In this document: piece by piece, positions 44-19,123 of the stretch
Layout of the letters: every line of letters begins with the position of its first letter
Position numbering within the stretch: position 1 is the first letter of the stretch
Virus record (IMG/VR): IMGVR_UViG_3300025022_000018
Location: 1-24,059 of that record
Source of the DNA: a virus
Taxonomy: Duplodnaviria; Caudoviricetes
Reading direction: 5' to 3' (one strand)
DNA: 24,059 nt
Translations under genes and position numbers: made by a program
The notes under the pieces: generated by a model
The model's input: the letters and a program-made list of their open reading frames with translations, nothing else
Told to the model about the DNA's origin: nothing
Databases searched by the model: none

Positions 44-115
44 ATCCAACAAGCCAAGGAAACCGCTTCGTCTTTAGCGGAGCGGAGGAATTGGCTTCCC
101 CCTTTTGTAATTATA

Positions 116-124
116 TGATATAAT
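116..124 (+). promoter_or_regulatory. Extended -10 (TG-A-TATAAT) for a probably leaderless tnpB mRNA
   Basis: TGATATAAT ends 8 nt before the ATG at 133; no Shine-Dalgarno sequence. Confidence 0.55.
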
Positions 125-132
125 AATTCTAT

Positions 133-1245
133 ATGCAACTGTCTATTAAGATTAAACTTGTTCCTAACCAAGAACAAAAAGACATTCTTTTGAAAACCAT
201 TGAAGCTTATAACGAAGCTTGTAATTTTGTTTCCCAAATAGCTTTTGAAAACAAAACTGCTTCTGTGGTAAAAATCCACCGCATTTGCTACTACGAAATC
301 CGCAAAAGATTTAATCTTTCCTCTCAAATGGCTGTTCGTGTAGTTGGCAAAGTTGCCGACGCTTACAAGATTGCCAGAAGTAAAAAACTTAATCTTAAAC
401 AACCCCATCAATTTAACAAGTGGGGAGCTGTTATTTACGACCAACGTATTTTCTCTTGGAAAGGACTTGAAAAAGTATCTATTCTAACGCTTCAGGGCAG
501 ACAAATTATCCCCATTGTCTTGGGAGAGTACCAGAAAACCAAACTTATTTATCCCCGTAGAGGACAGGTTGATTTGCTGTATAAAGATGAAAACTTTTAC
601 TTGATACCTGTTGTGAATGTCCCTGAACCGCCTGAAAAGATTAACAAAGGTTTTCTTGATGTAGATTTGGGCGTGAAAAATTTGGGCGTTGATAGTATGG
701 GTGAAGTTTACTCTGGAAAGGAGGTGGATAAAAAAAGAGTAAAGATTGATAAACTGAAATCTGCTTTGCAAAGGAAAAATACCAAGTCGGCGAAAAGACA
801 TTTGAAAAAACTGTTTGGCAAAGAAAGTAGATTTAGAACTTGGGTAAACCACAACATTAGCAAGAAGATTGTTAAAAAGGCTAAAAGACACTCTCTCGGA
901 ATTGTCATTGAAGATTTGACACATATCCGAGAGAGACAACGGCTTCGGAAAAGTCAACGCAGACAACATTCTTCTTGGGCATTTGACCAGTTGAGAAGGT
1001 TTTTGGAATATAAAAGTAAACTTGCGGGAATTATTCTGAAAGTTGTTGACCCGCATTATACTTCTCAACGATGTTCTGAATGTGGTTTTGTAAGTAAACA
1101 TAATCGCAAAAATCAATCTAATTTTGTTTGCAAATCGTGCGGCTTTTCTGCTAATGCCGACCACAACGGAGCTATAAATTTAGCTCAACTTGCTGTTGTA
1201 AACCAGCAAATCGTAGGTTCGACTTACAAGCCACTAGGTCTTTAG
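133..1245 (+). CDS. tnpB: RNA-guided endonuclease TnpB
   Basis: N-terminal IKLVPNQEQ, RuvC-I VDLG, RuvC-II IVIEDL, YTSQRCSECG...CKSCG zinc finger, RuvC-III NADHNGAINL. The D/E/D triad is intact. Confidence 0.97.
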   Translation: MQLSIKIKLVPNQEQKDILLKTIEAYNEACNFVSQIAFENKTASVVKIHRICYYEIRKRFNLSSQMAVRVVGKVADAYKIARSKKLNLKQPHQFNKWGAVIYDQRIFSWKGLEKVSILTLQGRQIIPIVLGEYQKTKLIYPRRGQVDLLYKDENFYLIPVVNVPEPPEKINKGFLDVDLGVKNLGVDSMGEVYSGKEVDKKRVKIDKLKSALQRKNTKSAKRHLKKLFGKESRFRTWVNHNISKKIVKKAKRHSLGIVIEDLTHIRERQRLRKSQRRQHSSWAFDQLRRFLEYKSKLAGIILKVVDPHYTSQRCSECGFVSKHNRKNQSNFVCKSCGFSANADHNGAINLAQLAVVNQQIVGSTYKPLGL

Positions 1246-1281
1246 CCTAGTGGTAGTTTACTTTCTTGGCGTCATCCTGAC
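1192..1281 (+). ncRNA. TnpB omegaRNA (reRNA) core plus about 20-nt flanking guide
   Basis: Stem GCTG/CAGC whose loop GTAAAC (1198-1203) is complementary to terminal GTTTAC (1256-1261), forming a pseudoknot. Further stems at 1213-1227 and 1231-1253. Guide TTTCTTGGCGTCATCCTGAC starts at 1262. The 5' limit is uncertain. Confidence 0.7.
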
Positions 1282-17528: not shown

Positions 17529-18283
17529 AAATACGCAACAAACTATATAACGGAGAAACAGAAGTAATGTTCGAGTCTTTCCGGCATCAATATTTTGATA
17601 AAAACGGAGAGATTCCTTCGGTTACGACTATTCTTTCCATAATTGGGAAACCTGCCCTTATTTCGTGGGCGGCTAATACTGCGATTGACTACGTTAGTCA
17701 ACAGATCGAGCCGGGGAAGTCGTACGATGAGTTAGAATTGCAGGCTGTCTGGGAAGGTGGTAAACGAGCGCATTATCAGAAAAAGACAGACGCGGGGACA
17801 GTGGGTATGTTTTTACATAAATTTATAGAGCAATATATCAAGGGTGAAAATCCAGCCGCGCCGGTGAACGAAGGGTTAAGAGATTCTGTTGGTCTATTTT
17901 TGGCTTGGGTAGAAAAACATCAAGTTAAATTTCTTCTGTCAGAACAGATGGTCATGTCCCGCAAATACCATTTTGTCGGGACGCTGGATTTTGTCTGTAC
18001 CATAGACGGCAAAATGTATCTGGGAGATTTGAAAACTTCGAGCGGGATATATCCGGAGATGTTTTTACAGACTGCCGCCTATCGCCTTGCCCGAACGGAA
18101 GAGTATCCGGAAGAAGATTATGCCGGACAACTAATTATTCGTATTGGGAAAGAGGGAGACTTTGAAGTGGCTATCGTCCGCGATGACGTTGCTTATAGAT
18201 CAATGCTTGTTGGCTTTATCGCCGCTCTTAAACTTTACGAAACCATGAAGAGCCTCAAAAAATATACTCCGAAAAAAGAGTGA
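17525..18283 (+). CDS. PD-(D/E)XK exonuclease (Cas4/RecB-like phage nuclease)
   Basis: PSVTTIL, G..LH, E, GTLD, DLKT, Q.AAY. Confidence 0.9.
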   Translation: MKIRNKLYNGETEVMFESFRHQYFDKNGEIPSVTTILSIIGKPALISWAANTAIDYVSQQIEPGKSYDELELQAVWEGGKRAHYQKKTDAGTVGMFLHKFIEQYIKGENPAAPVNEGLRDSVGLFLAWVEKHQVKFLLSEQMVMSRKYHFVGTLDFVCTIDGKMYLGDLKTSSGIYPEMFLQTAAYRLARTEEYPEEDYAGQLIIRIGKEGDFEVAIVRDDVAYRSMLVGFIAALKLYETMKSLKKYTPKKE

Positions 18284-18362
18284 ACTACCATTATGCTAAA
18301 GACAAAATGGCTTCTCGTTTCATAGACTTGACTAATGTCAACGCCTCACCGAGTTTTTGTTT
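18280..18362 (-). ncRNA. 3' part of a split TnpB-type omegaRNA scaffold
   Basis: CTCGGTGAGGC-GTTGACATTAGTCAA-GTCTATGAAACGAGAAG, then the right-end hairpin and GTTCAC. Confidence 0.65.
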
Positions 18363-18367
18363 CCGTT

Positions 18368-19006
18368 TTATATTATTTCCCAACCTTTATGAATATTTCT
18401 TTCACCTCTGCATAATAAGGCAATACATTTACTATCAAGATTAAATTCTTTTCTCAATTCATATTTAGTGCAAATTTTAGTCCCAAATTCTTTATGTTTA
18501 AATTGATAAATATCAGTATCGTATTGTGGATTATTTTCTCCATTCATTTTACCAATCATTGATTTTCTTATTTTATTTTTTGTTTTTTCTGAATGTGTTT
18601 GTCCAAATCTTGGTGATAGTTTACCAGTATTTCCATAATTAGGATGATTTTTTCCTGATATTTTTTCGGAAAATTCAGGTCTCTTTTTACCAAACAAAGG
18701 ATGGTTTTCACCAGAACCTACCCCATTTCCACCAATAGACCTATTATAACCAAGGTTAGGGTCTATTGAATTATATTTTGCTATTAATTCAATTTCTTGT
18801 TTATTCAACTCTTGCCAATTATTACATTCAGCTATTTGTTCAAAGACAAAGTTTTTAAACCCATATTTTTGTATTGCTAAATGAAATGTCATAGCAGACG
18901 TTTTTGAACGCCTTTTATGTTCAGACATCCTCTGTTTTAAAGATGTTGTTGTTTTACCAATGTAAATCTTACCATTAATCTTATTTGTCGCTTTGTATAT
19001 TATCAT
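18368..19006 (-). CDS. GIY-YIG homing-type endonuclease with NUMOD3-like repeats
   Basis: IIYKATN.INGKIYIG, R..EH, E, GYN...GG; NHP.FGK and HSEKTK.KI repeats; terminal H.GW. Start taken as MIIYK (19006). Visibly lower GC than its flanks. Confidence 0.93.
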   Translation of the reverse strand: MIIYKATNKINGKIYIGKTTTSLKQRMSEHKRRSKTSAMTFHLAIQKYGFKNFVFEQIAECNNWQELNKQEIELIAKYNSIDPNLGYNRSIGGNGVGSGENHPLFGKKRPEFSEKISGKNHPNYGNTGKLSPRFGQTHSEKTKNKIRKSMIGKMNGENNPQYDTDIYQFKHKEFGTKICTKYELRKEFNLDSKCIALLCRGERNIHKGWEII

Positions 19007-19011
19007 ATCCC

Positions 19012-19045
19012 TGTTTAATGTCCGATTGCGTCCCAAAACCAGACA
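19012..19045 (-). ncRNA. 5' stem-loop of the split omegaRNA scaffold
   Basis: TGTCTGGTT-TTGGGACGC-AATCGGACA-TTAAACA. The loop GGAC can pair with the terminal GTTC. A TG-T-TATAAC -10 lies at 19059-19051. Confidence 0.6.
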
Positions 19046-19123
19046 ATTTAGTTATAACATACAGGGCTAATTCATCTCAACTGCTAAAGACAGTTGAGTT
19101 TTCTTAGCCAACCTTTATAAAAA

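Follow-up and report, generated by a model that had tools for sequence, protein, structure and literature searches.

Background

Transposons of the IS200/IS605 family, such as IS608 and ISDra2, and their short non-autonomous derivatives (PATEs) carry subterminal hairpins, all on the same strand, and lack inverted terminal repeats. They insert 3' of a short target without duplicating it, and at each hairpin foot four nucleotides (nt) on the 5' side act as a guide that matches the cleavage site. The sections of PMC3201880 that deal with IS608 place the guides in the 4 nt 5' of each foot, the left cleavage site 19 nt 5' of the hairpin foot, and the right site a few nt 3' of the hairpin. This layout recurs in the subject of this article, a unit of 837 base pairs (bp) on the minus strand of the virus record IMGVR_UViG_3300025022_000018, at positions 18280-19116; the whole record of 24,059 bases is called the window below. 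The sole gene of the unit encodes an intact GIY-YIG/NUMOD3 endonuclease. Relatives of the unit encode the Y1 transposase TnpA and the protein TnpB, whereas the unit itself encodes neither, and a GIY-YIG endonuclease is not listed as cargo in the family papers that we searched.

Cas12 descends from TnpB transposons, which are now regarded as homing systems guided by RNA. The second known system to be compared is the free-standing phage homing gene with a catalytic domain of the I-TevI type; the Seg proteins of phage T4 are free-standing GIY-YIG homing endonucleases of this kind. Like such genes, the one in our unit combines a GIY-YIG domain, a NUMOD3 linker and a small C-terminal domain, has no intron or intein around it, and is present or absent at a precise site. 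Unlike them, it has landed not in a phage housekeeping gene but in the region of a transposon where the tail of tnpB meets the guide RNA, and hence it can also travel by transposition.

A third comparison is with the IStron, a group I intron fused with an IS605 or IS607 element, as outlined in bioRxiv 10.1101/2023.11.20.567912. So far as that outline goes, the IStron resembles the elements described here in that TnpB has to share its transposon with a second selfish element, which overlaps the guide-RNA region close to the right end; this creates a potential conflict between the two. Our case differs in that there is no ribozyme, the second element being a protein-coding homing gene, and in that a recoded duplicate of guide-RNA helix 1, present in relatives of the unit, appears to separate both functions. 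Rfam searches with E up to 1 found no family in the window or in the loci L004, L168, L130 and L143, except for one chance microRNA match.

Presentation of the hypothesis

Our best explanation, to which we assign a probability of roughly 0.65, is that the unit is an IS200/IS605 shell devoid of tnpA and tnpB, and that a free-standing GIY-YIG homing cassette of 654 bp resides in its remnant of the guide-RNA/tnpB-tail region. The cassette would spread by homing into transposon tails, and the shell would be moved by TnpA supplied in trans. Taken singly, IS200/IS605 ends, short non-autonomous derivatives and free-standing GIY-YIG homing genes are all known. Their combination was not found in print. 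The literature that we searched, outside which most subscription journals and ISfinder remained, holds no account of a homing-endonuclease lineage confined to one IS605 site; this agrees with the preliminary description of this DNA, whose author knew of no such class.

Several parts of this picture are shown directly. The ends have the anatomy described below, and the insertion lies at a TTTAT site on a stop codon. The cassette has exact limits and a shell without it exists. Close relatives of the gene recur at one position of IS605 elements in eight further genomic flanks, in six of them together with tnpB sequence and, in one complete element, with tnpA. The protein is under purifying selection.

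The ends of the unit and its insertion site

The window also contains a sister element of the IS605 type that does have a tnpB gene with RuvC and zinc-finger domains and a contiguous guide-RNA region, as expected of a TnpB/omega RNA system; the unit retains a tnpB tail of only 32 nt, and in it helices 1 and 2 of the putative guide-RNA region are parted by the cassette. The ends of both elements have the same design. The left ends align as GCYAAG-RAAA-8 bp stem-TCTTTAG-stem-AKGAATTRGC, the right ends as AAGCCA..TCTTTAG..TGGTAGTTYAC. The record contains exactly two copies of a right-end pattern of 23 letters, at 1239-1261 (+) and 18280-18302 (-), and none of its reversed control. The heptamer TCTTTAG is present 15 times (5.4 expected), and in 4 of these 15 cases it is the loop of a hairpin; these are exactly the four element ends.

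As single-stranded DNA (ssDNA), both left ends fold into an identical two-tier hairpin. It has an outer stem of 6-7 bp, internal loops of 5 nt, one of which holds the 4-nt guide, and an inner stem closed by a CTTTA loop. The fold of the left end of the GIY-YIG element has a z score of -4.1 (none of 200 shuffles folds as well) and that of the other left end -2.65 (4 of 200); the right ends reach -1.98 and -2.83. In the right-end stem of the GIY-YIG element 7 of 8 positions are paired, with one T.T mismatch. The closest match to its left end, 88% identical over 50 nt, is the left end of the tnpB element L130 (the prefix L denotes loci of our collection).

Subterminal imperfect palindromes thus defined lie on one strand at both ends, and terminal inverted repeats are absent. 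The unit is inserted 3' of TTTTTAT, and no repeat of this target is found at the right flank, so there is no target duplication. Immediately 5' of the left end, TTTAT is present in each of 11 related left ends as well as in L130 and L144. The left cleavage site lies 18 nt 5' of the hairpin foot in the GIY-YIG element and 19 nt in the tnpB element, as compared with the 19 nt given above for IS608; the right site is 8 nt from the foot, against 10 nt in IS608.

When 18280-19116 is removed, the end of the neighbouring exonuclease gene changes from ..AAA AAA GAG TGA to ..AAA AAA GAA TAA, with the last residue unchanged and a stop kept. The present TGA stop (18281-18283) comes from the complement of the right-end terminus. 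The preliminary description had noticed this restored gene end, had drawn attention to the end design shared with the sister element, and had recognised the anatomy of an IS200/IS605 element that a Y1 transposase could mobilise. Our analysis bears out all three.

The sister element sits in a similar way 3' of TTCAT, at the stop codon of a gene for a methyltransferase. Stop codons of flanking genes have therefore been hit by both insertions (38-43 with 1258-1263 for the methyltransferase; 18278-18283 with 19117-19120 for the exonuclease). In each case a new in-frame stop is read from the strand opposite the right-end terminus (TTAC or TCAC), and the protein ends are kept (..PRK* and ..KKE*). 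Given a target TTYAT and such a terminus, insertion at TAA or TGA stops is silent.

Table 1. Features of the GIY-YIG unit and of its sister element, in window positions
Feature	Position	Strand	Remarks
Left-flank target TTTTTAT (element's strand)	19117..19123	-	includes the original TAA stop of the exonuclease gene
Left end (LE)	19065..19116	-	outer stem 19104-19109 with 19065-19070
LE guide, inner stems and loop	guide AAAA 19099-19102; inner stems 19091-19098 and 19076-19083; loop TCTTTAG 19084-19090	-	
Spacer between LE and tnpB-tail remnant	19044..19063	-	judged from sequence only; loosely like the stretch 5' of the tail in L322-type short elements
tnpB 3' tail remnant, 32 nt; helix 1 of the putative guide-RNA (omega RNA) region	19012..19043	-	pairwise alignment to the cassette-free L322 tail
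GIY-YIG cassette, 654 bp	18358..19011	-	missing from cassette-free shell copies; contig joint 18357 to 19012
GIY-YIG/NUMOD3 homing-endonuclease open reading frame (ORF), 212 amino acids (aa) from ATG, intact	18368..19006	-	only sizeable ORF inside the unit
Remnant of putative guide-RNA helix 2	18315..18357	-	compensatory changes keep the helix
Right end (RE)	18280..18314	-	guide GAAG 18311-18314; hairpin 18288-18310, loop 18296-18302
RE terminal TAGTTCAC	18280-18287	-	TCAC = predicted cleavage site
Sister IS605-type element	44..1261	+	tnpB ORF 133-1245; end design as in the GIY-YIG element

The wider family with these ends and the guide rule

The right-end pattern was found in 81 stretches of IMG/VR, which reduce to 67 distinct contexts. 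In 33 of the 67 an ORF of at least 100 aa on the same strand ends near the right end, and 30 of these were scanned, two near-duplicates and the window's own phage being left out. TnpB accounts for 18 of the 30 adjacent ORFs and a GIY-YIG protein for none; the remainder are flanking phage genes. Short shells of 138-414 bp with both ends exist at seven loci. Further, a protein related (45-46% identity) to a Y1 TnpA confirmed by Pfam is encoded in L127, L135 and L147, whose ends share this design.

The preliminary description had relied on the rule that guide tetranucleotides predict the cleavage sites. Formulated for the left end, the rule states that the target is T, the complement of guide base 1, A, and the complement of guide base 4, and that it lies 15-20 nt 5' of the stem foot. 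This fits 18 of 23 distinct left ends. Four guide classes are represented among the 18 fits, which include three cases of GAAA/TCAT, four of AAAT/TTAA and one of AAAG/TTAC. The rule appears to stand for left ends; for right ends it is weaker, as discussed below.

Several loci (L082, L131, L085 and L145/L156) contain units with a single hairpin, in which the 5' half of a left end, including the guide, is joined through the TCTTTAG loop to the 3' half of a right end. These look like minimal one-hairpin derivatives or left-right recombinants.

The GIY-YIG protein

That the only gene of the unit encodes a GIY-YIG endonuclease, as had been stated from the letters alone, is confirmed by a Pfam GIY-YIG match at 2.4e-10 in the protein of 212 aa, to which NUMOD3 is added. 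The match to PHROG 314, annotated as 'homing endonuclease', spans residues 2-211 (5e-31). In a structure model of modest quality (mean pLDDT 61.8; linker 80-161 unmodelled) the predicted N-terminal domain finds its best structural match in the I-TevI catalytic domain (1mk0, E 6e-4). The C-terminal domain matches I-HmuI at a probability of only 0.60, and we assign no fold to it. A search of the PDB by sequence gave no match for the protein.

Residues Y4, Y15, R26, H30, E71 and N88 are invariant in 8 sequences; by analogy, we presume that the conserved Tyr, Arg, His, Glu and Asn residues are catalytic. The ratio dN/dS between the window protein and 7 homologues is 0.14-0.35, and over all 28 pairs it is 0.12-0.36 in 26 and 0.62-0.63 in two; the relative in L169 was excluded from this count because its GIY-YIG gene is frameshifted. 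The protein is under purifying selection and, given these ratios and the predicted I-TevI-like fold, it looks functional. The short spacer between the left end and the tnpB-tail remnant may contain a promoter from which the gene would be expressed.

We considered whether the enzyme could act on the hairpin ends itself, as a single-strand nuclease or a transposase-like enzyme, in analogy to the Ssn family. Ssn is a GIY-YIG single-strand nuclease whose genes are flanked by repeats, and the pertinent part of PMC11893778 calls this repeat-gene-repeat layout 'identical to' that of insertion sequences. Yet our protein has the modular build of a homing endonuclease (GIY-YIG, NUMOD3 linker, small C-terminal domain) and matches PHROG 314 over its full length. 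Moreover, in relatives of the unit it is Y1 TnpA that serves ends of this design, and the gene's own relatives are associated with hairpins of two types. In our opinion, an action of the enzyme on the ends deserves hardly any credence.

Close relatives of the gene reside in IS605 elements

Homologues were sought in IMG/VR, in metagenome contigs and in one genome per species. Outside the window phage there are eight close relatives with full-length identity of 56-67% (L004, L163, L164, L165, L167, L168, L169 and L170). All eight lie inside IS605 elements, in eight different flanks, and at one spot, between the 3' end of tnpB and the guide-RNA/right-end region. In all eight, the conserved tail follows within about 120 nt, then a right end that terminates in TAGTTCAC (TAATTCAC in L164), and then unrelated flanks. 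The preliminary description had proposed to test whether homologues have such ends at other loci, and all eight close ones do recur with IS605 ends. By contrast, 223 loci with distant relatives (at most 54% identity, mostly confined to the catalytic domain) yielded neither TnpB nor TnpA (tblastn at 1e-4, 7 queries) nor the right-end motif at any locus. Among the contigs of one genome per species nothing closely homologous to the protein was detected; there the best match over the full length is 36%.

The composition of these elements is informative. L004 is a complete IS605 element in the order LE-tnpA-tnpB-GIY-RE, with a Y1 tnpA identified by Pfam and a tnpB with all three Pfam domains. L168 combines a full tnpB with the GIY-YIG gene, in L169 tnpB is reduced to a fragment of 108 aa, and L164 is a second tnpB-less form, LE-tnpA remnant-GIY-RE. 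The 3' end of tnpB lies directly 5' of the GIY-YIG gene in 6 of the 8 relatives; in L163 the contig begins too near the gene for an upstream tnpB to be judged. L167 and L168 are 98.8% identical over 938 nt and differ in their flanks, which indicates that the composite moved recently.

The preliminary description had concluded that the element swapped its homing nuclease for a GIY-YIG enzyme. In its functional form, this idea means that the GIY-YIG enzyme took over the role of TnpB and cuts the vacated donor site, whereupon the transposon is copied back. Both enzymes are indeed homing nucleases in a broad sense, and the window element and L164 have the GIY-YIG gene without tnpB. However, tnpB sequence is retained beside the gene in 6 of 8 relatives, L004 and L168 have it in full, and backbones without the cassette exist, as does a cassette-free form of the window shell (see below). 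Across 9 genomic flanks, all different, the gene is always found at the same place in the transposon, in keeping with a target that lies there and not in the flanks. Finally, it is established for homing endonucleases that a protein of fixed specificity cannot follow a transposon to new sites; it cannot re-cut whichever empty donor site the transposon has just left, as TnpB does. We therefore abandon the notion of a swap, and regard such a replacement of function as very unlikely.

Some peculiarities of individual relatives may be mentioned here. The C-terminal half of the GIY-YIG protein in L170 is nearly identical to that in L167/L168, while the catalytic N-terminal domain is far more diverged; this suggests domain exchange between cassettes. 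The element in L168 (1215-1230) has tnpB and the GIY-YIG gene but neither tnpA nor a left-end hairpin, and its homology to L004 begins internally, right after a flank TTTAT. Either it is a truncated copy or it uses a second, internal left end.

A cassette at one precise position

A search with the conserved tail motif returned 35 loci of the L004-type family of insertion sequences (IS). In 11 of the 35 the tnpB tail is uninterrupted by a cassette, and the TnpB product is 73-84% identical to that of L004; the others include short shells. Compared with these cassette-free alleles, the cassette is positioned at the 3' end of tnpB, and the junctions in L004, L165, L167-L170 and the window agree within about 5 nt. 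In L004 the cassette is flanked by a target duplication of 45 nt, whose upstream copy supplies the end of a tnpB that is slightly shortened; the downstream copy has diverged in sequence.

The tail folds into three helices, with compensatory changes at 14 of 37 pairs. Diverged downstream copies of the tail retain helix 1, which was defined on 15 tails, through compensatory changes. By its position the conserved tail is probably the guide (omega) RNA region. The remnant in the window (19012-19043) aligns best to a cassette-free tail of the L322 type.

Presence and absence at one precise site are evident when L169 and L004, which bear the cassette, are set against the backbones of L346 and L348, which lack it. 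L346 shares 98.4% identity with the tnpB 3' end of L169 over 310 nt, and 91.5% with L168 over 1229 nt. The cassettes of L004 and L168, on the other hand, differ at a dS of about 1.2 despite their similar backbones.

Contigs from public groundwater metagenomes (runs X1-X4) bear on the shell of the window itself. Two contigs of run X4 join 18357 directly to 19012, and so represent the same shell minus exactly the 654-bp cassette; matching loose ends were found in X1, X2 and X3. The joint has an ambiguity of 5 letters and 23 letters on its shorter side. Contigs with the same ends but other flanks diverge at 18279/18280 and at 19122/19123, with the letters TTTTTAT kept. In X1, short contigs that contain only the ends have a word depth of 94-377, as against 12-15 for contigs of the flank or of the GIY-YIG body; these depths fit a repeat family and are not to be read as a copy number. 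In X2 and X3 the phage flanks are uncovered and the GIY-YIG body is covered, which might place the GIY-bearing shell elsewhere in those runs, but missing contig cover proves nothing and we made no use of it.

A tnpB beside the GIY-YIG gene, cassette-free backbones and a cassette-free window shell together lead us to the view that the GIY-YIG gene is a secondary invader of the tnpB-tail/guide-RNA region. The same data bear on a simpler scenario, in which a single event of illegitimate recombination captured the gene, which was thereafter inherited and moved only as IS605 cargo, with later losses and without any homing into transposons. A passive passenger of this kind could be deleted precisely across the 45-nt repeat, L167 and L168 do show spread as cargo, and the cleavage of transposon tails is a step that we infer. 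Against a single capture speak at least three end or backbone types that carry the cassette: the TCTTTAG-loop shell of the window, the L004/L168 type, and L165, for which cassette-free L345 has the nearest tnpB end. It is also difficult to reconcile with junctions concordant within about 5 nt, with backbones 91-98% identical with and without the cassette, with the dS of about 1.2 between cassettes in similar backbones, and with the purifying selection on the protein. In our opinion a mere passenger is improbable, if worth keeping in mind.

One derivative deserves separate mention. L319/L330 is a short shell whose left-end region is joined directly to the last GIY-YIG codons and the recoded helix-1 copy. 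Judged by its sequence, it arose by deletion from an element with the cassette, and both tnpB and the endonuclease are gone.

Proposed mechanism and points against it

According to our hypothesis of homing into transposon tails, the target of the GIY-YIG enzyme would lie in IS605 elements, in the conserved DNA where the tnpB tail borders on the guide RNA. The endonuclease likely cuts cassette-free transposon tails, and the cassette is then likely copied into the cut tail during repair. Once resident, it would ride along as Y1 TnpA moves the element as single-stranded DNA. Since the window shell has neither tnpA nor tnpB, its movement would need Y1 TnpA in trans. As regards the history of this shell, tnpB may have been lost after invasion, or a short shell may have been invaded; the cassette-free shell in the contigs makes the latter possible.

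We would tentatively go further, at somewhat less than even odds, and propose a selfish system of three layers: phage, transposon and homing gene. A GIY-YIG lineage would have specialised on the guide-RNA gene of IS605 elements, landing at the tnpB/omega-RNA boundary together with a recoded, structure-keeping copy of helix 1. In this way TnpB, guide RNA and endonuclease would all stay functional, the filled allele would be immune to re-cutting, and the cassette would hitch-hike on TnpA. The window copy would then be a homing gene that has outlived the RNA-guided nuclease in a bare hairpin shell.

A number of facts weigh against the hypothesis. The joint that defines the cassette-free shell rests on short contigs; the metagenomes behind them share one habitat and one year, and one run, X1, probably represents the source sample. 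Among the assembled contigs the exact GIY-bearing shell occurs only in the window phage, at one site. An empty site for the whole element was not found: the exonuclease protein matches only the same phage in IMG/VR, and its relatives in INPHARED have at most 33% identity; an exact 21-letter stretch of the window tail likewise matches only the same phage. No tnpA was found anywhere in the record, which is 46% complete. The guide rule is weak for the right ends, where GAAG/TCAC occurs 38 times and AAAG/TTAC 4 times (Fisher p 0.017, uncorrected for relatedness). The window cassette has only 5 nt from junction to ATG and lacks the duplication seen in relatives, and the guide RNA of the window copy is split. 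Cleavage, homing and excision are steps that we infer, and the patchy distribution of the cassette on IS backbones could reflect repeated loss across the 45-nt repeat and not repeated gain.

Implications of the hypothesis

The relatives show a classical, protein-guided homing endonuclease gene lodged in TnpB transposons at a fixed site beside the putative guide RNA. Two kinds of homing nuclease thus meet in one element, where nature offers an example of either conflict or cooperation between them. If the hypothesis is correct, single-strand transposition would be a new route for the spread of homing genes. The conserved guide-RNA DNA offers a testable target. For annotation, it would explain phage IS605 shells in which a 'stray' homing endonuclease is the only gene. 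In the present instance a selfish gene, likely an invader, sits inside a selfish IS605 element inside a groundwater phage.

Additional observations

The phage genes on the record, which is judged 46% complete as noted, include those for a large terminase, a portal-like protein, a primase-helicase, the exonuclease and a phosphoesterase.

Other candidate homing genes were encountered in or near elements of the collection. In L169 (1280-2107) and L325 (1308-2174), and also in L333, an ORF of 275-288 aa replaces the N-terminal part of tnpB, with a C-terminal tnpB fragment behind it. In L169 and L325 it begins M.KNTNKWIGRRFGRLTVV, and Pfam matches it weakly to Phage_endo_I and DUF1064; this may be a further type of homing endonuclease that landed in tnpB. 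L169 holds both this ORF type and the frameshifted GIY-YIG gene. In L324 (2825-3529, minus strand), which belongs to the same IS family, a tnpB remnant has a different GIY-YIG protein, with an I-HmuI NUMOD-like C-terminus, just 5' of its zinc-finger part. Finally, L318 (621-2366) contains a cytosine-methyltransferase-like ORF of 581 aa, which is overlapped in another frame by a GIY-YIG ORF of 223 aa (880-1551); the latter may be a homing gene inside a methyltransferase gene.

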